Origin: Candidatus Omnitrophota bacterium
GTDB lineage: Bacteria > Omnitrophota > Gorgyraeia > Zapsychrales > Zapsychraceae
Assembly: GCA_015233115.1 (NCBI GenBank)
Contig: JADFYJ010000006.1
Coordinates: 595 to 64,594 of the forward strand
Length of the DNA: 64,000 nucleotides
Direction of reading: 5' to 3'
Shown: piece by piece, positions 4,094 through 56,369 of the stretch
Numbering within the stretch: position 1 is the first letter of the stretch
Layout: each line of letters starts with the position of its first letter
Program-made: the position numbers and the translations under genes
Notes under the pieces: generated by a model
What the model saw: the letters and a program-made list of their open reading frames with translations, nothing else
Database searches by the model: none
What the model was told of the DNA's origin: nothing

Positions 4094-4233
4094 TTTGGCA
4101 ATTCACCAAGAAGGATGATATACTTTAGCTAAGAGATGTGAAAGGTAAACCACCCGTAAGGATGGGACACAAAGCTATAGGGCCCTGTACCAGAGGTAGA
4201 GGGTAGCCAGTTGCCGCGAGAAAAAAATTTGTG

Positions 4234-4453: not shown

Positions 4454-4840
4454 ATGAGAAGAGGACAAAAAGGTTTTACGCTGGTGGAAATCATGATCGT
4501 TGTGGCGATTATCGCGTTATTAGCCGCGATCGCGATTCCTAACTTGCTAAGAGCCAAAGTTTCGGCTAACGAAGCTTTAGCGCAAAGCACATTAAAAACA
4601 CTATCAACGTCTATTGAAACTTATACAACAGCGAATAACGGTCTTTATCCGAACGCTGAGAACTTGTTAACGGGTGCTACACCGCCATATTTGAATACGG
4701 CTTATTGCGGTCTAAGTCTTAGCGGTTACACCTATGCTTGTACTTTGGCTACCGGGGGTTACACGATTGTGGCGACTAATAATTCAACCAGCACAGGTAC
4801 CAGAACATTCACAGTTACAACAGGAGGCATTTTACGCTAA
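4454..4840 (+). CDS. pilA: Type IV major pilin (PilA-like), class III signal peptide
   Basis: N-terminus MRRGQKGFTLVEIMIVVAIIALLAAIAIP has the prepilin G|FTLVE cleavage/methylation motif. A C-terminal Cys pair forms a D-region-like loop (CGLSLSGYTYAC). The caaggagg RBS precedes the start. Confidence 0.9.
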   Translation: MRRGQKGFTLVEIMIVVAIIALLAAIAIPNLLRAKVSANEALAQSTLKTLSTSIETYTTANNGLYPNAENLLTGATPPYLNTAYCGLSLSGYTYACTLATGGYTIVATNNSTSTGTRTFTVTTGGILR

Positions 4841-4865
4841 TTGTGGTGATATAAAGTGAATTGGC

Positions 4866-4893
4866 GGGGGCTTAGCAATAAGCCCCTTTTTTT
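4866..4893 (+). terminator. Rho-independent terminator/attenuator after the major pilin gene
   Basis: Stem gggggctta/taagccccc followed by ttttttt. Confidence 0.75.
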
Positions 4894-4997
4894 ATAAATG
4901 AGCTCATCACTTAGAGAGCGAAGCGAACTAAGTGATTTGAGCGAATTTAGTTCCGTGCGAAGCTAGGAACTTCAACGCGGTCAAAATTGGAGGGGGG

Positions 4998-5465
4998 ATG
5001 GGGAAGAAGATAAATAATTCAGGCATGAGTTTAGTTGAGCTCATGGTGGCGTGCGGCATATTGGCTGTCTTCTTTTTGGGAGTAATAATTGTTTTTATTA
5101 AATGTATCCAGATGACTGAATTAGCCCGCAATTCTTCTCTCGCGATGTCGCTCGCGAAAACCCGCATGGAACAAATCCGCTTGCACAATAATATTCCTTT
5201 TAATCAAGTTCTCCTGACATATGATGGAATTATTTTTCCTACACCAGGCCTTAACGGTAAAGGAGTCAGCTATGTTGACGCGGATATCACGAATCCTAAA
5301 TTATTGACTGTAACGGTTGAGGTGTCCTGGAGAGAAAAAAGCGGACTTATTGTGGGAGAAGACAAAAATTTAGACGGTCAATTTGAAGTGGGGGAAGATA
5401 CTCTGGTGGTTAATACCCGCTTAGATTCCCCGGCTGAAATTACAGGGATAATTTATGATTACTAA
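4998..5465 (+). CDS. Minor pilin / pseudopilin with prepilin-type N-terminal motif
   Basis: MGKKINNSG|MSLVELMVACGILAVFF has a Gly-1/Glu+5 prepilin signature followed by a hydrophobic helix. Confidence 0.75.
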   Translation: MGKKINNSGMSLVELMVACGILAVFFLGVIIVFIKCIQMTELARNSSLAMSLAKTRMEQIRLHNNIPFNQVLLTYDGIIFPTPGLNGKGVSYVDADITNPKLLTVTVEVSWREKSGLIVGEDKNLDGQFEVGEDTLVVNTRLDSPAEITGIIYDY

Positions 5466-6171
5466 TGAACGAAAAAATAATAACCGCGCGGGATATAGCC
5501 TTCTTGAGCTGATGGTTGTCATCGCGATTTTAATGATGTTAATGAGCGCGTTATTTCGTCTGTTAGGCCGGGGGAGTGAAGTGTGGACTTTGTCGGATAC
5601 GAAAATTGATTTACAAAGTAATTTGCGATCATTAAGGGACCGGATCGCGGGTGAATTAGAGCAAAGCGGATCAGATGGAACGAACATGAAAGTATTTATT
5701 TCGCAGGGCACGGGAGTCAATAGTTCTGATGTCCTCAAGTTTTCTATTCCTGTTGTGTGTCAGAGCGGGGGAAGTATTATGAATTCTACGGCGGATGTAG
5801 CGTATTGGGGCGCGCCTTTAACGTATGGATGTACAGATTATACTTGCATGGATCATGATAACAATTGCGCGACTATTGATTACACTTGGCTGGTATACCA
5901 GTTAAAGTTAAATACAGATTTAACCCAATTGAATAAAAATAATCCGGTCCAGCAGTATCAACTTGTCCGTCAAGTTTTGGGCGCGGACGGAACAACTGTG
6001 GTGCGCGAAGACGTTATGGGCGCGAATGTGCCTGGTTTTAAAGCGTCCTTTGATACGGCCTCAAACGCGTTGATCACGCTGACTTTGACGGCTTCGGGTA
6101 TTTCGAATTTCCGTCGGACGGTATTGCCAATGACCACGACCTTTGAAGTGAACCTGCGGAATAAGAGGTGA
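5455..6171 (+). CDS. Minor pilin / pseudopilin (PilW/FimT-like) with prepilin N-terminal motif
   Basis: NNRAG|YSLLELMVVIAILMMLMSALF prepilin motif. The start overlaps the upstream gene by 11 nt. Confidence 0.75.
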   Translation: MITNERKNNNRAGYSLLELMVVIAILMMLMSALFRLLGRGSEVWTLSDTKIDLQSNLRSLRDRIAGELEQSGSDGTNMKVFISQGTGVNSSDVLKFSIPVVCQSGGSIMNSTADVAYWGAPLTYGCTDYTCMDHDNNCATIDYTWLVYQLKLNTDLTQLNKNNPVQQYQLVRQVLGADGTTVVREDVMGANVPGFKASFDTASNALITLTLTASGISNFRRTVLPMTTTFEVNLRNKR

Positions 6172-6174
6172 GAC

Positions 6175-7914
6175 ATGAACAATAGTGCCATGATGCGACG
6201 GATGTTGAAACCGCTCCAAAATAAAAAAGGAGTGGCCATGATCTTCACATTTTACCTGATTACCGTACTGATTGTGTTTGTGAGCATCGTCGCGGTGCGG
6301 ACGTTGAATGAAGGCCTGATGGCGAAAAAGGAACGCGAGTCGACAAAAGCTTTTTATTACGCCGAGGCAGGAGCAAACGCGGCTTTGCAGCAGATAGAAC
6401 ATTTTATCAATACCGACCTTTACGCGAACGTTAACAGCGCGTTCAATCCTCAAACTAAAGCTACAGAGATTCAGGGCTACGCGTGGGCCAATAAACCTTT
6501 AGACTTCCTTTTTAATTGTGCGCTTTCGGGAGGAGTAAATGATTTTACATATAACGTGGATAAGACGCAATTATCGAATACCTTGGGGACAACAGTATTG
6601 GGAGATGGCGCGTATACCTATACCGTGACGATCACTCCCAAAAGCACGCCGGTCTCTGTATCCTCTTCTTCCTGGAATTTTTTCTATAATTATAAAATTG
6701 TCGTGTGGGGTATTCGCGGGGCCGTAAATAAAATTATGTCCGCGACGGGTGATTTTCAAGTGACCGTACAAAAAGATAATATCGCGAAATTCGCGGTGAG
6801 CGTTCAGCAACAAAAACTCAAAGATAATACAACGCTAGTATGGTTCAATAATAACACTTATTTTAGAGGGCCGGTCCAATCCAATAATCAGCTCAATTTT
6901 TCCGGAACACCGGAATTTGACGGTGCGGTCACGCAGACTAATAATCTGGCCAATTTTTATAATGGCGGAAATATTAAACAATTGGCCAGCGACCACAATT
7001 CAACTTTGGATGTCCCGGTGTTTAATCAGTCGTTTTCCCGTAACTATCCCGCGGTGAGTCTGGATTCATCCACTGCGCAGACTGATCTTTCAAGTCAAGC
7101 TCAGGGGGCGGTTGCTCTTTCCGGGAACGGAGTTTTTATTCCGAATGATGGCACCAGAGTAACCGGAGGAATATTTACCCGGGGAGATACAACCATCCAG
7201 ATGTCCGTTGATTCGAATGGATATGCGAATTATACCGTAGGCGCTAATGGTACAACTAAAACGATTATTGTGGATCAAGACCATTTGACGACAACGGTCA
7301 AACAGGCAGGGTTAGCGGATGTGGTTTATGTCGGCTTACCTGATGGGGCGAGTAATCAAGGAACTATTATTTATACGGATGGAAAAATAACTAGTTTAAA
7401 GGGGACAGTACAACAAGATACGCAAGTGACTGTTTCCAGTGATGCGGATATTGTGATTACCGATAATATTGTGTATTCGGATTTCACCTCTCAAGTCGGA
7501 AACCCCGCTGATGACGATTATATTCCTCCGTCGGCGGAAGGCGCGAAGAATTTGTTAGGAATATTATCGTGGAACGGTGATGTGCGCGTCGCGGTTCCGT
7601 CAAGCGCGCATAGTGATTTGACCATTGATGGTGTAGTCGTGGCACAAAAAGGGGTATTCCAGGTTGACAGTTACAATTCTGGTTCTCCCCGCGGGACTGT
7701 GACGTTATTAGGAGGATCTATCACCCAAAACTATGGCGCGTTTGGGACGTTTGACGGGTCGACTCAAAGTATGCTGACTGGTTACGCGAGAAATTTTGTT
7801 TATGATTCGCGGACCGGAGCCGGACAATCTCCGCCATATTTTCCGCCTTTAAAAGCGTCAGTGGCTTTTTCCACGGATATAACAGATAAAGTGATTTGGA
7901 GGGAGGGCTTTTAG
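6175..7914 (+). CDS. PilX-N-domain pilus-associated protein (large minor pilin / tip-associated factor)
   Basis: N-terminus KGVAMIFTFYLITVLIVFVSIVAVRTLNEGLMAKKERESTKAFYYAEAGANAAL resembles the PilX N-terminal domain. The remainder is Thr/Asn/Gly-rich and likely beta-rich. Confidence 0.6.
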   Translation: MNNSAMMRRMLKPLQNKKGVAMIFTFYLITVLIVFVSIVAVRTLNEGLMAKKERESTKAFYYAEAGANAALQQIEHFINTDLYANVNSAFNPQTKATEIQGYAWANKPLDFLFNCALSGGVNDFTYNVDKTQLSNTLGTTVLGDGAYTYTVTITPKSTPVSVSSSSWNFFYNYKIVVWGIRGAVNKIMSATGDFQVTVQKDNIAKFAVSVQQQKLKDNTTLVWFNNNTYFRGPVQSNNQLNFSGTPEFDGAVTQTNNLANFYNGGNIKQLASDHNSTLDVPVFNQSFSRNYPAVSLDSSTAQTDLSSQAQGAVALSGNGVFIPNDGTRVTGGIFTRGDTTIQMSVDSNGYANYTVGANGTTKTIIVDQDHLTTTVKQAGLADVVYVGLPDGASNQGTIIYTDGKITSLKGTVQQDTQVTVSSDADIVITDNIVYSDFTSQVGNPADDDYIPPSAEGAKNLLGILSWNGDVRVAVPSSAHSDLTIDGVVVAQKGVFQVDSYNSGSPRGTVTLLGGSITQNYGAFGTFDGSTQSMLTGYARNFVYDSRTGAGQSPPYFPPLKASVAFSTDITDKVIWREGF

Positions 7915-7915
7915 A

Positions 7916-8221
7916 ATGAAATCGAATAAAGCGACAGTGATGATTGTAGCCGGAGCGATTATTTTCATGCTATTACTCGTCAATCATTGGGTATCCCGAC
8001 AAATGAAAGACGCGTTAAATGTGCCGAGAGTTGGCCATAGCATCCCTGTTCAAAAATCTTCAGAACCAAAGGCTGACCCAAAGTTTGATGATGCGGCGCC
8101 AGTATCTTCTGAAGCGCAACCAAAGGTTTTACCCAGAAAACATGGGCATATAAAACGGCCGTTTCCAGTGGTCAGTGAAGAAAAAAGTGATGCACCGCGG
8201 GGCCCGATTTTGGTGCAATGA
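7916..8221 (+). CDS. Hypothetical small membrane protein (one N-terminal TM segment, Pro-rich tail)
   Basis: ORF with a hydrophobic N-terminal segment (VMIVAGAIIFMLLLV). It is translationally coupled to the upstream gene, and no family was recognised. Confidence 0.4.
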   Translation: MKSNKATVMIVAGAIIFMLLLVNHWVSRQMKDALNVPRVGHSIPVQKSSEPKADPKFDDAAPVSSEAQPKVLPRKHGHIKRPFPVVSEEKSDAPRGPILVQ

Positions 8222-8318
8222 CAAAACGCGTGACAGTGTAACAATGTGACAATGAAAAAGCGGTTGGTTGGAAAGGCGCATTACTTTTTTAAATAATAAA
8301 TTAAATTTGAATTAAATA

Positions 8319-8345
8319 TTGCCTGCCTTGTTTTTTTGCTATAAT
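8319..8345 (+). promoter_or_regulatory. Candidate sigma70 promoter for pilMNOPQ
   Basis: TTGCCT (8319-8324), a 15-nt spacer, then TATAAT (8340-8345). The short spacer lowers confidence. Confidence 0.35.
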
Positions 8346-8385
8346 CCATTGTATAAATTCTAACTCATAATTTTACCCTAATAAA

Positions 8386-9441
8386 ATGAACAAATTTTTA
8401 GATACTTATTTTAAAACAATTAAACGGTTTTTACCGGAACGATCTGCGGAAACGTCGGTGGGAATTGACATTGGCACAGGCGAGTGCAAACTCATAGAAC
8501 TGATTAAAAAACAGGACAGTTATGAGGTTGTGAATTGGTCAATTCGTCCGGTCGATAATAATGACATCGCGAGCGCGCTTAAGGCCATGTTGTCGAAATT
8601 AGGCCCTGGAAAACGTTCCATTTACACCTCAGTTTCCGGGCGGGGAACTTTGATCCGTTATATTGAAATGCCGCACATGTCTGTCGAGGACATGAAGAAT
8701 TCTTTCGGATTGGAAGCGGATAAATATTTTCCTTTTGCGCAGAATGAAATTTATTCTGACTGTTCCATCATAGATAATGAGAACAAGAAAAAACTGATGT
8801 ATGTGATGGCTGCGGTTGCCAAAAAAGATATCATTGATCTGCGGATAAAACTTTTAAGTGACTTGGGTTATAAGGTGGATTTTATCGGGCTCAATCCGGT
8901 GGCTTTGGCCAATGTCATGAATACTCTCGGTGCGGGTGAAGAGGCCAAGTCTGAAAAAGCTGTGGCGGTTTTGGACATGGGAGGAACCATCAGCAATTTA
9001 TCCATTTTTATAAAAGACAAACCGTGGTTTACGCGCGATATTTTTGTGGGCGGTCGTGATTTTACAAAACGCATCAGCAATATTTTGGGGGTGGACATGA
9101 ATCAGGCGGAGATATTAAAAACTTCGCCCAGCGATCAGCTGGAAAAAATGCTCGACGCGTGCGACTCTGCGGTGACGAATATTGTGCAGGAAATAAAATT
9201 GTCGTTTGATTATTTTTCAACAGAACGGAATTTTGAAGTTGGAAAATTGCTGTTAACGGGAGGCGCTTCAAAGCTGGAAGGTCTCTCGGCGCGGGTAGAA
9301 AAACATTTGGAAATCCCGGTAGTCTATTGGAATCCATTAAGTTTGGTGAAAATGTCTTCGGATATTTCTCCGGAAGAAATAAAAAAAGAATCCATGAAAT
9401 TAGGCGTGGCTCTCGGGCTCGCATTATATAATTATGATTGA
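8386..9441 (+). CDS. pilM: Type IV pilus assembly protein PilM (actin-like ATPase fold)
   Basis: VGIDIGTGECKLIEL phosphate-1-like motif. The gene is 351 aa and is followed by pilNOPQ. Confidence 0.85.
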   Translation: MNKFLDTYFKTIKRFLPERSAETSVGIDIGTGECKLIELIKKQDSYEVVNWSIRPVDNNDIASALKAMLSKLGPGKRSIYTSVSGRGTLIRYIEMPHMSVEDMKNSFGLEADKYFPFAQNEIYSDCSIIDNENKKKLMYVMAAVAKKDIIDLRIKLLSDLGYKVDFIGLNPVALANVMNTLGAGEEAKSEKAVAVLDMGGTISNLSIFIKDKPWFTRDIFVGGRDFTKRISNILGVDMNQAEILKTSPSDQLEKMLDACDSAVTNIVQEIKLSFDYFSTERNFEVGKLLLTGGASKLEGLSARVEKHLEIPVVYWNPLSLVKMSSDISPEEIKKESMKLGVALGLALYNYD

Positions 9442-10018
9442 AATTAACCTCACACCACCGGAAGCGCGGAAAAAACGTACAGCTGGCGGCTTTATGAAGG
9501 GCCTGAGTGTGCCATTGGAAGTGATCATTGGCTTAGGCGGTGGTTTATTAATGTTACTGTTGTGTATTTATGTGGTACTGGTTTTCGCGAACCTGGGCAA
9601 AGCCGCTGAGCTGCGGTCATTGAATAAACAGTGGGAACAATTACAGCCGGAGAAAAAAGAAATTGATGCGGTATTAAGTGATTTGCGCTCTTTGCAGTCC
9701 ATTAAGAAAGATGTACAAAAAATTTGCAACGCGAACCGTATCCGTTGGTCTCGGAAGTTGAATATCATCACAGATGTTATTCCCAAAGGCGTCTGGCTGA
9801 TCAGAATTGATGCGGGCGACGCCAGTCTTTTTATTAAAGGCCGGGCGCTTTCAAAGCAGGGAGAGGAATTAAGGAATATTCATGCCTTTGTCGCGAATTT
9901 GAAAAACAATCCGGATTTTATGAGTGAGCTTAAAGATGTGGAATTGGGAAATATTCAATCTGTTAAAGTGAGCGGCGTTGATGTATCAGAGTTTTCGATC
10001 AAGGTGGTCTTAAAATGA
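9434..10018 (+). CDS. pilN: Type IV pilus assembly protein PilN
   Basis: Single N-proximal TM segment followed by a coiled-coil. Its position between pilM and pilO is typical, and its start overlaps pilM. Confidence 0.75.
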   Translation: MIEINLTPPEARKKRTAGGFMKGLSVPLEVIIGLGGGLLMLLLCIYVVLVFANLGKAAELRSLNKQWEQLQPEKKEIDAVLSDLRSLQSIKKDVQKICNANRIRWSRKLNIITDVIPKGVWLIRIDAGDASLFIKGRALSKQGEELRNIHAFVANLKNNPDFMSELKDVELGNIQSVKVSGVDVSEFSIKVVLK

Positions 10019-10617
10019 AAAAAGTGGAACTATTAGAAAAATATCGGGCTTTTGTGGAAAACATGGATGAAAAAACCCGCTATTATATTTTTGGTGGGAT
10101 ATTGTTACTGGTATTTTTATTGTGCTATTTTATTTTTATCCACCCGCAATTAGCATCTTTATCAAAAATATCTCCTGAGCTTGACCTGGTGCGGGAGGAT
10201 ATCAAAAAATTGAAAAATGACCGGCAACAAATTAACCAATACAAGAAGCAGGTCGCGGATTTAACCAAAGACACGGAGAAATTAAGTTTACGGATCCGGC
10301 CCAAAGAAGAAGTATCTGTGGTTATTGAATCGATTTCGCATTTGGCGAATAAATACAATGTGAAACTGGATCAGATTAATCCTAATTTGTCTGACCAACA
10401 AAAAATCATGGACAGTCAGGGGAAATCATATTACCGGCTTCCTATTTTAATCGACGGGCGGAGTGGTTATCATGATTTTGGCAGATTTTTAAATGCGTTA
10501 GAAATGAGCGATATTTATATAGAAGTGCAAAAATATTCCATTTTTCCGTCAGAAATCCAGCGTTTGCAAAAAGTCACCATTACATTGAATGCCGTGGTTT
10601 TTGATGCGGGGAAATGA
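10015..10617 (+). CDS. pilO: Type IV pilus assembly protein PilO
   Basis: N-terminal TM segment and a coiled-coil. Its start overlaps pilN by 4 nt, and it is the right size for PilO. Confidence 0.7.
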   Translation: MKKVELLEKYRAFVENMDEKTRYYIFGGILLLVFLLCYFIFIHPQLASLSKISPELDLVREDIKKLKNDRQQINQYKKQVADLTKDTEKLSLRIRPKEEVSVVIESISHLANKYNVKLDQINPNLSDQQKIMDSQGKSYYRLPILIDGRSGYHDFGRFLNALEMSDIYIEVQKYSIFPSEIQRLQKVTITLNAVVFDAGK

Positions 10618-10657
10618 TAAAAGTGGTAAACGTGGTAGAGGTGATAAAGGTGGTAAA
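10613..10657. repeat. 9-mer tandem repeat (GTGGTAAAS/GTGATAAAG x5) at pilO/pilP junction
   Basis: tgataaaagtggtaaacgtggtagaggtgataaaggtggtaaagg. Confidence 0.7.
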
Positions 10658-10715
10658 GGAAAAAACGACTGATCAAAAACGTAGGGGCGCCCTGGTTTTT
10701 AAAAAAAACACAAAC

Positions 10716-11066
10716 ATGAAAAAGAAATCATTATTTTTATTATTTGTTGTTATGATGTCGGCGGTAGCTTATGCGGCTGAGCCTGCGCTCGATTACAATG
10801 ACCATAACAAACGTGATCCTTTTTGGAGTTTGGTCAGCACGAGCGGCACCATTCTTAATTTCGACACGGAATACTCTTTATCGGAATTAAATATTGAAGG
10901 GATCATTATGGGTAAGGCAGGGGACAATATGGCCATTATCGGCGGGAAGATTGTAAAAAAAGGCGAACTCTTGGGACAATATATGGTGGTAGAGATTCAA
11001 ACAGATAAAGTTATCTTGTCAGCTGGCGGGAAAATTTCTGAAGTTAAAATGAATAAGGGAGAGTGA
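10716..11066 (+). CDS. pilP: PilP-like pilus assembly lipoprotein (signal peptide)
   Basis: The start chosen is MKKKSLFLLFVVMMSAVAYA, a signal peptide. The longer ORF-track start at 10614 reads through a 9-mer tandem repeat and is unlikely to be real. Confidence 0.6.
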   Translation: MKKKSLFLLFVVMMSAVAYAAEPALDYNDHNKRDPFWSLVSTSGTILNFDTEYSLSELNIEGIIMGKAGDNMAIIGGKIVKKGELLGQYMVVEIQTDKVILSAGGKISEVKMNKGE

Positions 11067-14135: not shown

Positions 14136-14137
14136 AA

Positions 14138-14172
14138 GTGACAGAGTAACCGAGTAACCGAGTAACAGAGTG
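14138..14172. repeat. Family-A tandem octamer block (GTGACAGA GTAACCGA GTAACCGA GTAACAGA)
   Basis: Directly follows the rng stop. Its inverted partner lies at 14327..14366. Confidence 0.8.
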
Positions 14173-14231
14173 AAAAGAAAAGCGATTGATGGGAAAAAAA
14201 TCTACTTTGTTTACTCTGTACTTTTTTCCTC

Positions 14232-14260
14232 TTGACGAAAAGGGATCTATTGCTTATACT
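14232..14260 (+). promoter_or_regulatory. sigma70-like promoter for rplU
   Basis: TTGACG, a 17-nt spacer, then TATACT. It lies between an inverted pair of family-A repeats. Confidence 0.5.
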
Positions 14261-14326
14261 TGGCAAACGATAAATTACGGCAAGACTAATTAGGTTCAGA
14301 GATTTTCCTATATTTTTTGTTTTTTT

Positions 14327-14366
14327 CTCTGTTACTTTGTTACTCGGTTACTTTGTCACTTAACAA
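14327..14366. repeat. Family-A block, reverse orientation (CTCTGTTACTTTGTTACTCGGTTACTTTGTCAC)
   Basis: Reverse complement of the block at 14138. It lies in the rplU 5' leader. Confidence 0.8.
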
Positions 14367-14387
14367 AATTTACTATGGAGGCAGTTT

Positions 14388-14810: not shown

Positions 14811-14822
14811 ATTGAATCTTTA

Positions 14823-14866
14823 AAAGTAACAGAGTAACCGAGTAACAAAGTAACAGAGCAACAGAA
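14823..14866. repeat. Family-A block (forward)
   Basis: aaagtaacagagtaaccgagtaacaaagtaacagagcaacag, located after the rplU terminator. Confidence 0.8.
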
Positions 14867-14937
14867 TAAAAAACTAATATTAAGGCTGTTACTTTGATTT
14901 TGTTTTTTACAAGTATTGTTTTTTTGTAATCTTTTTT

Positions 14938-14978
14938 TGTGCTCTGTTACTCGGTCACTTTGTTACTTTGTTACTTTA
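14938..14978. repeat. Family-A block (reverse)
   Basis: gtgctctgttactcggtcactttgttactttgttacttt, located before obg. Confidence 0.8.
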
Positions 14979-16751: not shown

Positions 16752-16756
16752 AACGT

Positions 16757-16782
16757 CGTAGGGGCGATCTCCTGATCGCCCG
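16757..16782. repeat. Family-D 26-nt palindromic element (cgtaggggcgatctcctgatcgcccg)
   Basis: It is itself a hairpin (GGGCGATC tcct GATCGCCC). A T-run lies 9 nt downstream, so it may terminate proB transcription. Confidence 0.8.
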
Positions 16783-16827
16783 CAACAATCGTTTTTAAAT
16801 AAAAATCAAAAAGCAATAATTTTGTCA

Positions 16828-16853
16828 CGGGCGATCAGGAGATCGCCCCTACG
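16828..16853. repeat. Family-D element, exact reverse complement of 16757..16782
   Basis: cgggcgatcaggagatcgcccctacg. Confidence 0.85.
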
Positions 16854-16878
16854 AACAGTGTAAATGTAGGAACATAAT

Positions 16879-18795: not shown

Positions 18796-18822
18796 CGGGC
18801 GATCGGGAGATCGCCCCTACGA
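18796..18822. repeat. Family-D element (reverse orientation)
   Basis: gcgggcgatcgggagatcgcccctacg, located after nadD. Confidence 0.8.
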
Positions 18823-18861
18823 AAGAAACGATTATTTAAAGTGTAACAATATTTTGCTGTT

Positions 18862-18886
18862 GTAGGGGAGATCTCCTGATCTCCCG
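18862..18886. repeat. Family-D element (forward orientation, slightly diverged)
   Basis: gtaggggagatctcctgatctcccg. Confidence 0.75.
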
Positions 18887-30347: not shown

Positions 30348-30350
30348 AGA

Positions 30351-30383
30351 TAGTATGTAGTATGTGGTATGTCGTATGTAGTG
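30351..30383. repeat. Family-B block (forward)
   Basis: tagtatgtagtatgtggtatgtcgtatgtagtg, located after the rpsA stop. Confidence 0.8.
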
Positions 30384-30579
30384 AAAAAGCAATTGATTGT
30401 GAAATAATAAATATATTAGAGCAAATATAGATAAAAAGCGTTGTGTGAAACGTATAGAAATTTTAGTCTGTTTAAAATATTTTTAAAAAATTTTGATTTC
30501 TATTTTTATTTATATTTAGGCTTTACGATATAACTAAGTATTACTTCATTTTGCTTGTTTTTTAAAAATTTTATTTTTA

Positions 30580-30610
30580 CGACATACCACATACGACATA
30601 CTACATACTA
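30580..30610. repeat. Family-B block (reverse)
   Basis: cgacataccacatacgacatactacatact. It ends 8 nt before the tyrS ATG. Confidence 0.8.
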
Positions 30611-30618
30611 TTTATTTT

Positions 30619-35028: not shown

Positions 35029-35030
35029 AT

Positions 35031-35068
35031 TTGATGGTTGTTGGTTGATGGTTGTTAGTTTTGGTTAA
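35031..35068. repeat. Family-C block (forward)
   Basis: ttgatggttgttggttgatggttgttagttttggttaa, located after the rplL stop. Confidence 0.75.
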
Positions 35069-35100
35069 AGCATTGGAGTTGTTTAAAATAAGCGCTTTTT

Positions 35101-35130
35101 CCAAAAACTATAAACTTCCAACTAAAACCC
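35101..35130. repeat. Family-C block (reverse)
   Basis: ccaaaaactataaacttccaactaaaaccc, located before rpoB. Confidence 0.65.
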
Positions 35131-35198
35131 CCGATATTATGTTTCAGGTGATGTTAATTTAATCAAACCAATACCGAACGGTTAAGATCGCCATATAT

Positions 35199-43778: not shown

Positions 43779-45872
43779 ATGGCTAAGACACCACTTATAG
43801 ATTATCGTAACATTGGGATCATTGCCCATATCGACGCGGGTAAAACCACGACGACTGAGCGTATTTTGTATTACACCGGCGTTATCCATAAAATGGGTAA
43901 TATCGATGATGGTAATACCGCTATGGATTGGATGGAGCAGGAACAAGAGCGCGGGATCACGATTACCTCGGCGAGTACCGTTTGTTTTTGGAAAGGCAAG
44001 CAGATCAATCTGATCGATACTCCCGGACACGTTGATTTTACGATGGAAGTCGAGCGTTCATTAAAAGTTTTGGACGGAGCGGTTGTGGTTTTGTGCGGAA
44101 CCAGCGGTGTTCAACCTCAAACCGAAACTGTCTGGCGTCAAGCTGACCGCTATAGTGTTCCCCGTATTTTATTCGTTAATAAATTAGACCGTTTAGGTGC
44201 GAATTTTGAGCGCGTTATTGATGAGAGTCACGAACGCTTAGGCGCAAATTCTGCCGCGATTCAGCTTCCGGATGGCCACGAAGACCAATTTCATGGCATT
44301 ATTGATATTATTGAAGAAAAATATTACGTATATAAAGATGATGCGGGCGAAGACATTGATACTTTACCTGTTCCGGAAAAATTTAAAGCTAAAGTCGCTG
44401 AGATGAGGCACAAATTGCTGGAACGTTTGTCAGACGCTGATGATATGATTATGGAGAGATTTTTAGAAGAAAAACCGGTAACGGTTGAAGAAATCAAGAG
44501 TGCTATCCGCCGCGGTGTTATTGCTTGTACGTTTGTCCCAGTTCTTTGCGGTACCGCATTGCGCAATAAAGGAGTTCAATTTGTTTTAGATGCTGTGACT
44601 GAATATTTACCTTCTCCGTTAGATATTCCTCCGGTTAAAGGAATTAATCCTTCTTCTAAAGAAGAAGAACTTCGTGCTCCAGATCCTGCCGCTCCTTTTT
44701 CAGGATTAGTTTTCAAAATTGCCACAGATCCTTACGTTGGTAAATTATTTTATACTCGTATTTATTCCGGAACAGTTAATTCTGGAGATTCAGTTTGGAA
44801 CGCGTCTGAGGGATGTAAAGAACGTATTTCTAAAATGGTTTTGATGCACGCCAACCGTCAGGAAATTGTTCCTTCTGTATCAGCCGGAGATATTATCGCT
44901 TTGGTAGGTTTAAAAGATAGCAAAACCGGAACCTCTTTGTGCGATCAAACTAAGAAAATTTTACTTGAGAATATGCGTATTCCTGAACCGGTTGTTTCCA
45001 TGTCGATTGAGCCAAAAACTAAAGCTGACTCAGACCGCATGGGTATGGTATTAAAGAAATTTCTCGATGAAGATCCTTCCTTACGTTGCACCTATAATCA
45101 TGAAACCGCTCAAAGTATTATTTCTGGTATGGGCGAGCTTCATTTGGAAATTATCATTGATCGTATGAAACGCGAATTTAATTTGGAGACGAGTGTAGGC
45201 CGTCCTGAAGTTGCTTATAAAGAGACTGTCCAGCGTAAAGTAACGGGTGTAGTGGGTAAACACATTGCCCAATCTGGCGGACGCGGTCAATATGGTCACT
45301 GTGTTATTGATATTGAACCTCAGGAAGTCAGAGGAACTGGTTATCAATTCGTTGATATGATTAAAGGTGGCGCGATTCCTCGTGAATTTATTAAATGCGT
45401 TGATGAAGGTTTACGCATGGGTTTGACTAGCGGTATTTTAGCCGGATACCCGGTTGTGGATATAAAAGTTACTCTTGTGGATGGTTCTTATCACGATGTT
45501 GACTCTAATGAGCTGGCTTTTCAGTTAGCCGCCAAAAACGCACTTAAAGATGCTTTAGCAAAAGCTGGTTCTATTTTCCTTGAGCCGATTATGGATATCG
45601 AAGTGGTAGCTCCGGAAGAATACATGAGCTCCGCGATCGGCGACTTGAATCAGCGCCGTGCTAAAATTTTAAGTTTAGGTCAACGCGGCCATTTGAAAGT
45701 GACCCGATGCGAGGTTCCTCTTTCAGAGATGTTTAATTACGTGAATGCATTACGTTCGTTATCACAAGGACGCGCGACATATACGATGGAACCAAAGTTT
45801 TACGATGTTGTTCCAAAATTCATAGCTGATAAAATTATCGGCGAAAGAACAGCGTCTGGACATAAAAGATAG
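43779..45872 (+). CDS. fusA: Elongation factor G
   Basis: [16 protein letters not shown]1 motif. It is 697 aa. Confidence 0.97.
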
Positions 45873-45904
45873 TGACAGAGTAACCGAGTAACCGAGTAAC
45901 CGAG
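45872..45904. repeat. Family-A block (forward)
   Basis: agtgacagagtaaccgagtaaccgagtaaccgag. It starts at the fusA stop codon. Confidence 0.8.
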
Positions 45905-46095
45905 AAAAAGCGGTTGGTGAAAAGCGAATGGTGAAAGCGTTGGCGTATAAAAAGTGATTAGGTTTTAAAAAATATATTATTTGATTAAAATTAAAGTTTG
46001 GTTTTTTTTGTTTATGTTTGGTAATTATTATTCGATTTGTTGTTTTGTTCTTTGGTAAAATAATTTTTTTGTTGTTAGTTATTTGTTATTTTTTT

Positions 46096-46130
46096 ACTTT
46101 GTTACTCGGTTACATGGTTACTTTGTTACT
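46096..46130. repeat. Family-A block (reverse)
   Basis: ctttgttactcggttacatggttactttgttact, in the tuf leader. Confidence 0.8.
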
Positions 46131-46163
46131 AATATTTTTTCCAAATAAAAAGGAGGCAGTCAC

Positions 46164-52503: not shown

Positions 52504-52508
52504 TAAAG

Positions 52509-52590
52509 GTAGTATGTAGTGCGTAGTATGTCGTATGTAGAAAAAGAAAAATAATAAAAGCTGTATGTCGTGCGCAGTATTAAGTATGTA
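52509..52590. repeat. Family-B blocks (forward, two copies)
   Basis: gtagtatgtagtgcgtagtatgtcgtatgtag and a degenerate copy ctgtatgtcgtgcgcagtattaagtatgta, located after the rpsQ stop. Confidence 0.75.
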
Positions 52591-52610
52591 AAAAAGATAC
52601 GTTTTTAAAA

Positions 52611-52640
52611 CCACATACCACATACCACATACCACATACT
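52611..52640. repeat. Family-B block (reverse)
   Basis: ccacataccacataccacataccacatact, located before rplN. Confidence 0.8.
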
Positions 52641-52656
52641 CTACAAAAGGTTACTT

Positions 52657-54117: not shown

Positions 54118-54513
54118 ATGTCATTAAGTGATCCGATTAGTAATTTTTTAACAAATGTCCGAAACGCCATCAAAGTCCGTAAAGAAACGGTTGATGTTCC
54201 TGCGTCAAAATTAGTGGGAAAAATCCTTGAAATATTCAAGGCGGATGGCTACATCGAAGATTTCCGTTTGATGAAGGATAATGTGCAGGGCACATACAAG
54301 ATTTATTTGAAATATCAGGGAAAAGCTTCCGCCATTACTGGGTTGAAGCGTATTTCAAAACCAGGTTTAAGAGTTTATGTTCAACGAGACGAAATTCCAA
54401 AAGTATTGAACGGTTTAGGTACGGCAGTCATTTCAACGTCCAAAGGCGTGGTGACCAACCGTGAAGCTAAAAAGTTAAGTGCCGGCGGAGAAGTCTTATG
54501 TTACATTTGGTAG
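54118..54513 (+). CDS. rpsH: 30S ribosomal protein S8
   Basis: MSLSDPISNFLTNVRNA. Confidence 0.95.
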   Translation: MSLSDPISNFLTNVRNAIKVRKETVDVPASKLVGKILEIFKADGYIEDFRLMKDNVQGTYKIYLKYQGKASAITGLKRISKPGLRVYVQRDEIPKVLNGLGTAVISTSKGVVTNREAKKLSAGGEVLCYIW

Positions 54514-54610
54514 GCCGTTCGCGGGAGCTCACGGCACTACTTCGGACATTTCGTCCTCGGTCGGCCGTTCGCAGGAGCTCACGGCACTACTTCGGACATT
54601 GCGTCCTCGG
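54513..54610. repeat. Direct tandem repeat, 2 x 48 nt (period 50) between rpsH and rplF
   Basis: ggccgttcgc[g/a]ggagctcacggcactacttcggacatt[t/g]cgtcctcgg x2. It begins at the last base of the rpsH stop codon. Confidence 0.9.
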
Positions 54611-54665
54611 GCGAAGTTCAAAGTTAATCGCTGTTTTTTAAGTTAACAATTTTGGCAGGAGTTAT

Positions 54666-55208
54666 ATGTCGAGAATAGGTAAGATCCCAGTTCAAGTTTT
54701 AAAAGATGCAAAAATCACGATCAATAAGTCTGACATATTAGTCGAAGGGCCTAAAGGTAAACTCAGTCTACCTCTTCCCCCGAAAATAGTTGTCAAACAG
54801 GATAAAGACGTGTTGGTAGTAACTCGTTTAGGCGAGGATAAACAAACCCGTGCTAATCATGGGACTATCCGTGCGCGTTTGAAGGCCATGATCATAGGCG
54901 TTACTAAAGGTCATAGAAAAGATTTGGAAATTCAAGGGGTAGGTTTCCGTGCGGCACAGGCAGGAAACAAGATAACATTTAATTTGGGTTTAAGTCATCC
55001 GATCGAATTTGTGGTGCCAGCTGATGTGAAAGCCACAGTGACGAGCCAAACTCAAATTTCCATTGAAGGGGCAGATATTATTAAGGTGGGGCAGGCTGCC
55101 GCGGAGATCCGCGCGTTTAAACCGGCTGAACCTTATAAAGCCAAAGGCGTCCGCTATGTCGGAGAAGTTATTAGACGAAAACAAGGTAAATCCGCAGGTA
55201 AGAAATAA
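54666..55208 (+). CDS. rplF: 50S ribosomal protein L6
   Basis: MSRIGKIPVQV. Confidence 0.95.
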   Translation: MSRIGKIPVQVLKDAKITINKSDILVEGPKGKLSLPLPPKIVVKQDKDVLVVTRLGEDKQTRANHGTIRARLKAMIIGVTKGHRKDLEIQGVGFRAAQAGNKITFNLGLSHPIEFVVPADVKATVTSQTQISIEGADIIKVGQAAAEIRAFKPAEPYKAKGVRYVGEVIRRKQGKSAGKK

Positions 55209-55584: not shown

Positions 55585-56259
55585 ATGAAAAAGCCAATGG
55601 ATGATAAAAATAAAAAAGTAGGTCCGGAAGAGGTGAAAAAACCGGAATTTTCCGGCGAAGAAAAGATCAAGGCCGCTGTTACCCGTAAAGGTGATGGCCG
55701 TCGTCGTTCTGGTTCAGAAGAGGACGATACCGCCGCGATTGCCCGCCGCAGAAGCCGTGAAATGTTAAACGCGGGAGCGGAAGAAGATTCTGGTCTCGTC
55801 GAACAAGTGATTAAGATCAACCGCGTTACAAAAGTTACTAAGGGCGGTAAAAAATTGTCTTTTAGTGCTTTAGTCGTGGTGGGGGATAAAAAGGGTCAAG
55901 TTGGTTATTCTCAAGCTAAAGCGAGTGAAGTATCTACGGCTATTAAGAAAGCCATGAATAAAGCTAAAAAGAATATGATTAGGGTTCCTATGAAGGGAAC
56001 AACCATCCCTCACGAGATTATCGGCCAATGTGGCGCTGCCCGGGTTTTATTAAAACCGGCTGGCGAAGGTACGGGAGTTATCGCGGCAGGTCCAGTCCGC
56101 GCGATATGCGACGCGTCTGGGATAACGAATATTTTATCTAAGTGTCACAGATCCAATAATCCGGTCAATGTTATTAAAGCGACCATGGATGGGATCATGA
56201 GATTAAAAAGTGCGAAAACGGTGTCTGATCTCGACAGAGATTTGGCGAAAAGCATTTAA
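55585..56259 (+). CDS. rpsE: 30S ribosomal protein S5 with ~60-aa charged N-terminal extension
   Basis: The core is ...[39 protein letters not shown].... The Lys/Glu/Arg-rich N-terminal extension makes it 224 aa versus about 166 for a typical S5. Confidence 0.9.
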
Positions 56260-56369
56260 TTGGCGATAAGTTTTAATTTTTAGTAAATTGTTTCAGGTCG
56301 AGATCTGACACCATTTATTAAATCGCCATTATTAAGAAGAACCAACGTCATATGTAAGGATAAGATTTA

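Follow-up and report, generated by a model that had tools for sequence, protein, structure and literature searches.

A duplicated GTAG-tagged palindrome, possibly of REP type, between rpsH and rplF in the spc operon of an Omnitrophota bacterium

In the spc ribosomal-protein operon of a Candidatus Omnitrophota bacterium, the spacer between rpsH and rplF holds a small hairpin-forming repeat that occurs twice in tandem and whose first copy takes in the rpsH stop codon. The reading that we favor, at roughly even chances, is that this insert is a REP-type element, resembling the GTAG-tagged repetitive extragenic palindromes, that has been duplicated in place. The element looks like a small GC-rich palindrome of one Omnitrophota lineage and not like a conserved ribosomal-protein control site, and no new regulatory principle is demonstrated. 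The case is instructive in showing that a ribosomal operon can accommodate small palindromic repeats, including their capture of a stop codon and their doubling on the spot, and remain undisrupted. It also suggests that GTAG-tagged REP-like elements are present in Omnitrophota, a largely uncultured phylum in which, to our knowledge, they have not been described.

A tandem repeat in a normally short spacer

The following features were located in the window, the 64-kb stretch of DNA that was analysed as a whole.

54118-54513, plus strand: rpsH (S8), 131 aa, from the list of open reading frames, ending ...GGEVLCYIW (TGG TAG)
54509-54562, plus strand: repeat copy 1, with the 50-nt unit at 54513-54562 and homology to copy 2 from 54509 (Tandem Repeats Finder, BLAST)
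54510-54540, both strands: hairpin 1a, a GC-rich imperfect palindrome that embeds the rpsH stop codon
54544-54556: hairpin 2a, GGAC-ATTTC-GTCC, a predicted 4-bp stem-loop in the palindrome-flanking part of the unit
54559-54612, plus strand: repeat copy 2, differing from copy 1 by 54562 A>C, 54573 G>A, 54601 T>G and 54611 T>G
54564-54590, both strands: hairpin 1b, the copy-2 palindrome, with apical loop AGGA (plus) or TCCT (minus)
54594-54606: hairpin 2b, GGAC-ATTGC-GTCC, predicted by folding
54613-54665, plus strand: AT-rich rest of the spacer, holding the rplF Shine-Dalgarno sequence AGGAG at 54657-54661
54666-55208, plus strand: rplF (L6), 180 aa, starting MSRIGK...

The rplF product is identical to NCBI MBF0478719.1, from a metagenome-assembled genome (MAG) of a Candidatus Omnitrophica bacterium. 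From the end of rpsH at 54513 to the start of rplF at 54666 the spacer measures 152 nt, as a preliminary description of this DNA had stated. The same description reported two tandem, near-identical 48-nt units with two substitutions, the first of them starting on the last base of the rpsH stop codon, and these points are borne out by Tandem Repeats Finder (54509-54610, period 50, 2.0 copies, 94% matches, score 183) and by BLAST: the 48-nt units lie at 54513-54560 and 54563-54610, and the base in question is the G of TAG. Over their full 50 nt the units differ at three positions when compared by BLAST, and the entire repeated block (54509-54562 against 54559-54612) shows four mismatches over 54 aligned nt. 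The homology reaches 4 nt further into rpsH, reading GGTAG in copy 1 and GGTCG in copy 2, and the last 5 nt of rpsH (GGTAG) form part of both copy 1 and the stem of hairpin 1a. Because the homology takes in these last bases of the gene, the second copy is best described as an in situ tandem duplication. The 27-mer GGAGCTCACGGCACTACTTCGGACATT is present exactly two times, whereas shuffled sequence would be expected to contain it 0 times. Neither k-mer counting nor BLAST finds a further copy of the unit within the window, making this a single locus. With 53% GC overall and a maximum of 66% over 50 nt, the spacer is the most GC-rich non-tRNA intergenic region of the window.

Few bacterial gene arrays are as compact and conserved as the ribosomal-protein clusters, and the premise that rpsH and rplF normally lie close together holds. 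In nine relative loci from Omnitrophota the spacer spans 6-21 nt, apart from one of 68 nt with unrelated sequence (13, 11, 6, 6, 21, 68, 11 and 9 nt across L002-L007, L088 and L089). Across 81 loci, made up of these relatives and 73 diverse bacterial loci from a metagenome scan, the median is about 12 nt and only 5/81 spacers reach at least 89 nt. The metagenome protein scan returned only distant bacterial loci (41-53% identity), which serve as background for spacer lengths. S8 itself is 71-75% identical to that of most Omnitrophota relatives, and its gene ends in TAA in six of seven relatives and in TAG here. A comparison with relatives, which the preliminary description had proposed, finds the repeat element in none of the Omnitrophota relatives available. 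The source MAG has no close relative in the databases searched.

Palindrome design and likeness to GTAG REPs

Each unit consists of a larger hairpin followed by a small one. Hairpin 1 spans 31 nt with a stem of 5+2 bp, lengthened in unit 1 by a GUAG/CUAC pairing. Hairpin 1a reads GTAG-GCCGT-TC-GC-GGGA-GC-TC-ACGGC-A-CTAC on the plus strand and GTAG-T-GCCGT-GA-GC-TCCC-GC-GA-ACGGC on the minus strand, and the minus-strand palindrome of both units can be written GTAG-T-GCCGT-GA-GC-TCCY-GC-GA-ACGGC. The palindrome that had been quoted for each unit is exact in unit 1 (GGACATTTCGTCC), whereas unit 2 reads GGACATTGCGTCC. The minus-strand GTAG stands 1 nt before the stem in both units; the plus-strand tag is GTAG in unit 1 and a degenerate GTCG in unit 2. 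As RNA, a 40-nt segment with hairpin 1a is predicted to fold at -16.5 kcal/mol and its unit-2 counterpart at -11.2 kcal/mol. Folded as single-stranded DNA, hairpin 1a has z = -3.1 (plus) and -3.8 (minus), hairpin 1 across the units ranges from -1.9 to -3.8, and all hairpins, as RNA and as ssDNA, fall between -1.5 and -3.8. RNA folding further predicts that the tandem pair can form a long nested and interrupted duplex of ~20 bp. The suggestion that the repeat encodes an RNA structure is therefore sustained by the stable hairpins predicted in each unit, while the GTAG/CTAC design that links these units to REP-type repeats had gone unnoticed. Two candidate pairings proved unremarkable against 6380 background windows: TTCGGACATTT of the unit is complementary over 11 nt to rpsH codons 12-15, and hairpin 2b appears to pair with the rplF Shine-Dalgarno sequence and AUG in the best fold.

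The likeness to GTAG REPs, which include the E. coli REP/BIME 'GTAG-3' type and related families (Di Nocera et al. 2013, PMC3733652; Nunvar et al. 2010, PMC2817692), extends over size and palindromic form, tag and location. Such REPs measure 20-40 bp and have 5-13 bp in their stems, and some have complex loops flanked by GC residues with unpaired dinucleotides between loop and stem (PMC3733652); here, a GC-rich imperfect palindrome of ~30 nt has an apical loop that is GC-flanked, with unpaired dinucleotides toward the stem. The units carry GTAG at the foot of the stem, and the GTCG of copy 2 fits the GTMG to which REP tags can degenerate (PMC3733652). REP termini often supply the TAG stop of a flanking ORF, and between co-directional ORFs REPs lie <20 bp from the upstream one (PMC3733652). 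Correspondingly, the plus-strand GTAG of unit 1 provides the TAG stop of rpsH, and the element, which runs from that codon to 55 nt before rplF with both genes on the plus strand, abuts the upstream gene at its 3' end (distance 0 nt). Clusters of GTAG REPs arise by tandem reiteration together with flanking DNA (PMC3733652), as is seen in these units, and a second family of GTAG palindromes, REP-A, is present in the same genome. The plus-strand GTAG could, on the other hand, simply be the Trp-stop end of rpsH.

The REP-A palindromes, GTAG-GGGCGATC-TCCY-GATCGCCC, number four copies in the window against 0 expected. They lie at 16.8 and 18.8 kb, between proB and proA and between nadD and glmM, where they form one head-head and one tail-tail dimer, and in one copy a C-G pair of the stem has been replaced by A-T through compensatory change. 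A descriptor derived from REP-A that asks for GTAG just upstream, at least 6/8 paired positions and a TCCY loop, its tolerance having been set after the units had been seen, returns exactly six sites over 128 kb on both strands, of which REP-A accounts for four and the units for the other two. In Markov shuffles the rate is 0.025 hits per window. When the GTAG requirement is dropped, only one further site appears, AT-rich and within a coding region; hairpins with a TCCY loop occupy only three independent loci, two of which have GTAG in the same place. The unit core GAGCTCCYG matches GATCTCCTG of REP-A at 8/9 positions. Aligned by MAFFT, the units and the four REP-A copies do not fall into the structural register, and primary-sequence similarity is weak. 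The proposed relationship to REP-A rests on shared design, namely tag, stem and loop, and not on alignable sequence.

Several features set the element apart from known REPs. GTAG REPs are high-copy repeats, whereas the units were seen at one locus in 64 kb; an extra mini-hairpin lies within the 50-nt unit; and the element sits inside the spc ribosomal-protein operon of an Omnitrophota MAG, a phylum not among the eight covered by the survey of GTAG REPs (PMC3733652). The units are arranged head-to-tail, and such dimers are a rare REP arrangement (PMC3733652). REPINs, REP doublets that form hairpins (Bertels and Rainey 2011, PMC3116915), are inverted, as are the REP-A copies, which lie 40-70 bp apart; the rpsH-rplF pair, by contrast, is a direct doublet and is not a REPIN for that reason. 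No REP-associated tyrosine transposase (RAYT, Y1 HuH) was found among 15 window proteins scanned against Pfam. In collections that lack the source genome, 20-mer genome and 21-mer metagenome contig scans yielded one chance 20-mer, in a glycoside-hydrolase gene of a Clostridia MAG, and did not recover the present locus itself. Blastn of the spacer against plasmid and phage collections gave only chance matches of 25-31 nt (E = 0.5).

The weak alignment with REP-A and the single locus leave a credible, if distinctly less probable, alternative: the insert may be a non-mobile structured spacer private to this lineage, which would have gained an unrelated segment rich in GC that was doubled by replication slippage and tolerated as neutral or nearly so, its REP resemblance being coincidental. 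Duplication in place, including bases of rpsH, fits such an account equally. Other spacers of the same operon, expanded by local events, point the same way: that between S17 and L14 has a 51-nt x2 tandem repeat, and in that between S5 and L15 the 3' end of rpsE recurs as an inverted copy of 20 nt (I23). Other bacteria, too, sporadically have long rpsH-rplF spacers, whose hairpins are unrelated (for instance L008, L031, L038 and L058). What speaks for the REP-type reading over coincidence is the common GTAG tag, GC stem and TCCY loop, unlikely by chance at 0.025 expected per window; the GTAG found in the same place at two of the three independent TCCY-loop loci; and a GC content far above that of other intergenic regions.

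A proposed S8 operator and other candidate control elements

Within the spacer, the plus strand has no sigma-70-like promoter or other promoter-like site, and no terminator-like site was found in 54514-54665, where the sole T-run is preceded by a 4-bp stem whose loop spans 13 nt. The spacer is accordingly placed inside the operon transcript. The element might be a point of post-transcriptional control, specific to this lineage, at which the spc mRNA is divided between rpsH and rplF. The nested two-unit rod could form an RNase III-type processing site; alternatively, a REP-type palindrome could have been domesticated, its tag turning into the rpsH stop, and have given rise de novo to an operator bound by S8 or a different ribosomal protein. 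We consider this unlikely.

Quite improbable, too, is the more specific proposal of an autoregulatory operator, in which the units would mimic the S8 site, or that of another protein encoded downstream, and excess protein would repress rplF and the later genes. Its attraction lies in the position of the element, directly after rpsH in the spc operon, and in the form of hairpin 1, which has a bulged A on its 3' strand beside G-C pairs. The preliminary description had raised S8 autoregulation and had placed the S8 site on 23S rRNA; this is an error, as S8 binds helix 21 of 16S rRNA (PMC4176348). A descriptor of helix-21 type, by which the E. coli site is recovered, has no strict match in the element; only in relaxed form does it match hairpin 1, pairing GGU-A-GGC-CGU with ACG-G-CA-C-U-ACU. 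That relaxed form, however, scores 0.92 hits per 240 nt in shuffled sequence. The E. coli operator and helix 21 likewise have, in the former case within the spc operon, a helix with an extruded 3'-strand A beside a G-C pair; the E. coli operator, though, overlaps the rplE start, whereas the element here lies after rpsH.

At the level of the core the resemblance breaks down. The conserved seven-nucleotide asymmetric loop of the S8 site (A595, A596-U644 and G597-C643 with U641 and A642) is not reproduced: position 641 is C and not U, and core bases agree at 5/9 in unit 1 and 4/9 in unit 2. In the S8 site the bulged A642 is invariant and a 598-640 pair follows, and the core is highly conserved where an operator exists (PMC3616713). 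The S8-like register also lies above the best fold by about 10 kcal/mol in unit 1 and 5 kcal/mol in unit 2. In favor of an operator, S8 is able to remodel non-native RNAs into its recognition fold (PMC4176348). Against an operator are further the distance of the hairpins from the rplF ribosome-binding site (55-150 nt upstream, with no special complementarity to it) and the absence of the element from every available relative. Rfam likewise offers no match up to E = 10 for 54400-54750, and its only hits at gathering threshold over the window are two tRNAs and a c-di-GMP-I riboswitch. Nor do the hairpins in the long spacers of other bacteria contain a convincing S8-like core; among nine spacers there are two relaxed matches, neither on the main predicted hairpin. 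The suggested helix-21 mimicry is not supported.

A function at the DNA level, as tandem protein-binding sites 50 bp apart or as an internal promoter for a new unit starting at rplF, is very improbable. Each direct repeat does contain the inverted repeats GCCGT-N12-ACGGC and GGAC-N5-GTCC, the 50-bp spacing corresponds to about five helical turns, and E. coli REPs are bound by DNA-binding proteins (PMC2817692). The lack of a plus-strand sigma-70-like promoter in the spacer and of a candidate regulator nearby speaks against it, however, and the other promoter-bearing intergenic regions of the window are different in kind, being AT-rich with heptamer arrays. Hardly credible at all is the duplicated peptide-coding or small-RNA module that had also been entertained. 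On the plus strand, each of the three frames stays open through the GC-rich repeat, which is overlapped by ORFs of 55 and 47 aa, but these begin inside rpsH and lack their own ribosome-binding site. With a period of 50, which 3 does not divide, the copies fall into different frames and encode different peptides. Neither the spacer ORFs nor a read-through extension of S8 matches Pfam, no promoter or terminator was found on either strand, and no Rfam family matches.

Possible origin and consequences

If the insert is of REP type, the unit would have arrived in the form of one of this genome's REP-like palindromes, or evolved from one, and fused to the TGGTA of the rpsH end, its tag now providing the TAG stop. 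The unit would comprise the palindrome and about 20 nt of flanking DNA that form the small second hairpin, and a 50-bp slippage or unequal exchange may then have copied it along with 4-5 nt of rpsH, producing the head-to-tail pair. Since that duplication, the copies would have accumulated some 6% of divergence.

In the polycistronic mRNA, the element would probably be a passive stem-loop cluster, if it acts at all, and does not appear to be a dedicated ribosomal-protein sensor. The units are predicted to fold locally at about -16 to -22 kcal/mol each, or together as a nested rod of about -46 kcal/mol. Intercistronic stem-loops are familiar from E. coli mRNAs, where REP hairpins lie between malE and malF and an RNase III hairpin between rplL and rpoB. 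Like these, the hairpins described here are predicted to be stable, have a cistron of the same transcript on either side and lack a terminator U-tract; the comparison bears on how the element may work and not on family membership. By such analogy, the cluster may break the translational coupling of rpsH and rplF, and could block 3'-to-5' exonucleases or slightly impede termination at rpsH, as REPs do in E. coli. Because the spacer holds its own Shine-Dalgarno sequence for rplF, the gene can initiate independently. With three expanded spacers in the S10-spc operon, this organism could represent a natural experiment on dispensable translational coupling. As a minor observation on gene order, adk is present after secY.

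The rpsH-rplF repeat pair and other repeats of the window

The feature is real. A preliminary description had claimed a tandem repeat in a 152-nt spacer between rpsH and rplF, and this is borne out by Tandem Repeats Finder, by alignment of the units over 48 nt with two substitutions, and by the spacer length, obtained both by direct reading and from the ORF listing.

Features of the rpsH-rplF region (window positions; genes from the ORF listing)
54118-54513: rpsH (S8, 131 aa, ending ...GGEVLCYIW), stop TAG
54509-54610: single tandem array (period 50, 2.0 copies, 94% matches, score 183)
54513-54562: copy 1, 50 nt
54563-54612: copy 2, 50 nt
54666: start of rplF (L6, 180 aa, MSRIGK...)

The full 50-nt units differ at three positions, and a 27-mer common to both occurs exactly twice in the window versus never in 100 shuffles. 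The extent first described fell four bases short, with the homology reaching further upstream into rpsH, whose final five bases (GGTAG) pair in the alignment with the GGTCG that opens copy 2. Because the repeat homology includes this GGTAG, the copies are not separate arrivals; a single 50-bp segment, made up of the palindrome, a mini-hairpin and 4-5 nt of the rpsH end, would have been duplicated in place, and the copies would since have diverged by ~6%. The spacer is also the most GC-rich tRNA-free intergenic region in the window, its overall GC content being 53% and its maximum over 50 nt 66% (22 to 46% in the remaining intergenic regions).

Each unit holds two hairpins. Hairpin 1, the GC-rich imperfect palindrome, reads GTAG-GCCGT-TC-GC-GGGA-GC-TC-ACGGC-A-CTAC on the plus strand of unit 1, where the outer stem GGUAG/CUACU takes in the last two codons of rpsH (Trp and stop). 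Hairpin 2 is GGAC-ATTTC-GTCC. The second palindrome is exact in copy 1 only. Inter-copy differences are confined to two apical loops and an unpaired linker or tag, a placement that agrees with the hairpins being maintained but is not significant (all three substitutions fall at unpaired positions with a chance of about 0.18). A nested rod built from both units is possible, the full 166-nt segment folding at -51.6 versus -42.8 kcal/mol for the summed local folds, and fold z-scores are moderate (-2.1 on the plus strand, -3.5 on the minus strand).

At the protein level, L6 is a 100% match to NCBI MBF0478719.1 ('MAG: 50S ribosomal protein L6 [Candidatus Omnitrophica bacterium]'), encoded on a 149-kb contig, and there is no close relative for comparison, since the second-best match in a 5.8-billion-protein database is just 64-66% identical. 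The insert, for which relatives had been proposed as a check, occurs in none of nine Omnitrophota loci; their rpsH-rplF spacers measure 6-21 nt in eight and 68 nt in one (values given for L002-L007, L088 and L089: 13, 11, 6, 6, 21, 68, 11 and 9 nt), and the 68-nt sequence is unrelated. In L088 and L089 the fusA-to-rplQ clusters are fully compact. As the relatives' spacers are short or unrelated, the insert is lineage-specific.

Resemblance to GTAG-tagged REPs

An inverted-repeat scan of the window, combined with a scan for GTAG-headed hairpins, revealed a second GC-rich palindrome family, REP-A, in four copies versus zero expected.

REP-A pairs in the window
16756-16854: head-head pair in the proB-proA spacer, copies at 16758 (+) and 16852 (-)
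18797-18885: tail-tail pair in the nadD-glmM spacer, copies at 18820 (-) and 18862 (+)

REP-A has the form GTAG-GGGCGATC-TCCY-GATCGCCC; each palindrome is perfect and is followed by G-YNACAA..ATCGTTTTT. In the copy at 18862, a stem pair has changed from C-G to A-T, a compensatory substitution. The family matches the published description of GTAG-tagged repetitive extragenic palindromes (REPs) and their dimers (PMC3733652) and looks like a genuine REP/REPIN-type family in this Omnitrophota genome.

On the minus strand, both rpsH-rplF units read GTAG-T-GCCGT-GA-GC-TCCY-GC-GA-ACGGC. They share with REP-A the tag, a GC-rich stem and the apical loop, including its C/T polymorphism, and 8 of the 9 positions of their core GAGCTCCYG agree with GATCTCCTG of REP-A. 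A descriptor derived from REP-A (pairing at 6 or more of 8 positions, a TCCY loop and GTAG just upstream), the tolerance of which was fixed after the units had been seen, finds exactly six sites on both window strands, namely both units and all four copies of REP-A, versus 0.025 matches in Markov-shuffled windows. Dropping the GTAG requirement adds one site only, AT-rich and intragenic. Published GTAG REPs have stems of 5-13 bp, complex loops with GC flanks set off from the stem by unpaired dinucleotides, and tags that degenerate to GTMG; between co-directional ORFs they lie <20 bp from the upstream ORF, and their clusters reiterate in tandem along with flanking DNA (PMC3733652). The units fit these stem, loop, degenerate-tag (GTCG in copy 2, plus strand), ORF-distance and cluster properties. 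REP termini of this type often supply the TAG stop of a flanking ORF (PMC3733652), and it is consistent with this property that rpsH ends in TAG versus TAA in 6 of 7 relatives; TAG makes up 13 of the 63 stops in the window.

Over the 64 kb of genome covered, we consider the chances about even that the feature arose as a GTAG-tagged, REP-like palindrome that was inserted and then doubled in situ. Against this reading, the plus-strand GTAG may be no more than the Trp-stop terminus of rpsH. The units resemble REP-A weakly in primary sequence, with no in-register alignment by MAFFT; they lie head-to-tail, a rare arrangement for REP dimers; and a scan of 15 window proteins found no REP-associated tyrosine transposase (RAYT). 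Above all, REPs are defined by dispersal in high copy number, and the 64 kb covered hold this unit at the rpsH-rplF locus alone. The main rival, a structured spacer private to this lineage and belonging to no particular family, is a rather unlikely but serious candidate. Long structured rpsH-rplF spacers are rare yet recurrent in bacteria: in a set of 81 loci, made up of the Omnitrophota relatives and 73 diverse bacterial loci found by metagenome scanning, the median is about 12 nt, 12 reach 50 nt or more and five at least 89 nt, and several of those in other bacteria carry a strong, unrelated hairpin directly after rpsH. A REP-like insertion here would be an element in an unusual place, in a phylum with no earlier description of such elements.

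Other identities and possible effects on the operon mRNA

An operator for S8 or another ribosomal protein, as first suggested, is very improbable. The S8 target is not on 23S rRNA, as had been stated, but is the asymmetric internal loop of 16S rRNA helix 21, comprising A595-(A596-U644), (G597-C643)-U641 and the invariant extruded A642 (PMC4176348). The same core recurs in the spc operator of E. coli, located at the start of rplE, and its conservation is high wherever that operator exists (PMC4176348; PMC3616713). A topology descriptor of the loop that recovers the E. coli site has no strict match in the spacer; its relaxed form matches hairpin 1 of each unit (GGU-A-GGC-CGU with ACG-G-CA-C-U-ACU), and gives 0.92 matches per 240 nt of shuffled sequence. 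Position 641 is C, not U, and the core bases agree at just 5 of 9 positions in unit 1 and 4 of 9 in unit 2. The S8-like register is predicted to be disfavoured, at -6.7 versus -16.5 kcal/mol in unit 1 and -6.0 versus -11.2 kcal/mol in unit 2. S8 mimicry by the units is not supported. S8 could nonetheless bind them, as remodelling of non-native RNAs by this protein is known. Their complementarity to the rplF initiation region or the rpsH 5' part is unremarkable against 6380 background windows.

A peptide-coding module, also suggested initially, is ruled out, since the period of 50 puts the copies in different reading frames and neither the overlapping ORFs nor the read-through S8 extension has a Pfam match. 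The element has no Rfam match, whether the whole window is searched at the gathering threshold or 54400-54750 at E <= 10, and plasmid and phage collections hold no similar DNA. Exact 20-/21-mers are missing from genome and metagenome collections, which evidently lack the source genome, because the locus itself was not returned; the sole match is a chance one inside a Clostridia glycoside-hydrolase gene.

The spacer contains no terminator-like or plus-strand promoter-like site and is therefore transcribed within the operon mRNA, where the putative REP-like element would form a cluster of stable stem-loops starting on the rpsH stop codon. The 152-nt distance and the strong structure separating the genes would require rplF to initiate on its own, from its AGGAG at 54657-54661, and the usual coupling to rpsH would be lost. 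E. coli REP hairpins block 3'-to-5' exonucleases. Liang, Rudd and Deutscher reportedly found in 2015 that termination of a gene is impeded if a REP lies within about 15 nt of its stop codon. By analogy, the element could stabilise the upstream mRNA segment or slightly reduce S8 output; the data would fit a neutral effect just as well.

Expanded spacers and paired arrays

Two further spacers of the ribosomal-protein cluster are enlarged.

Other enlarged spacers
52504-52656: S17-L14, 153 nt (3-11 nt in relatives)
56260-56369: S5-L15, 110 nt (-1 to 18 nt in relatives)

The S17-L14 spacer contains a twofold 51-nt tandem repeat (81% matches) and ACCACAT x4.3, bracketed by inverted heptamer arrays, the arms of which would give A-C mismatches in plus-strand RNA and G-U pairs on the minus strand. 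In the S5-L15 spacer, where rpmD (L30) is missing as in relatives, a 20-nt inverted copy (56297-56316) is 90% complementary to the rpsE 3' end (56216-56235); the two could pair in a 20-bp stem around the stop codon of rpsE. Evidently, the lineage tolerates or generates repeat-driven intergenic growth even within this cluster. The rpsE product itself (S5, 55585-56259, 224 aa) has a ~60-aa Lys/Glu/Arg-rich N-terminal extension, S5 length ranging from 140 to 237 aa among Omnitrophota relatives.

Many intergenic regions of the window are bracketed by mutually complementary arrays of 7-8-nt tandem repeats.

Array-bracketed regions
203-393
2128-2316
8222-8385
14136-14387
14822-14977
30348-30618
35029-35198
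45866-46131
52504-52656 (the S17-L14 spacer)

The arms span 25-55 nt and are 75-96% complementary; the left array begins at the upstream stop codon, often followed by a GAAAAAGC(G/A)RTTG-like motif, and the right array stops just short of the downstream ribosome-binding site, with 45-200 nt of AT-rich DNA between them. At least four array 'alphabets' occur (GAGTAAC/GTTACTC, GTAGTAT/ATACNAC, TGGTT/AACCA and GTGACA/TGTCAC), and both arrays of any locus always match each other, a covariation-like pattern across loci. Paired arrays are missing in the relatives L088 and L089. Candidate identities are a foldback or MITE-like element, a long processing stem or a protein-binding array; the paired arrays seem more unusual than the rpsH-rplF repeat pair.

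Elsewhere in the window, a c-di-GMP-I riboswitch (4134-4218; Rfam RF01051, 58.7 bits) precedes a gene run (4454-11066) marked by prepilin N-terminal methylation motifs and by PilN/PilO homologues. Two unrelated metagenome contigs of other bacteria (L031, L058) share a homologous rpsH-rplF spacer ending ...CCGAAAAUKUAAGUGUAGGAGGUA; the hairpin before this common end shows compensatory stem changes (GAGCGGAUC/GGUCCGCUC versus GAGCAGCC/GGUGCUGUUC) and may be a conserved intercistronic hairpin of another bacterial lineage.
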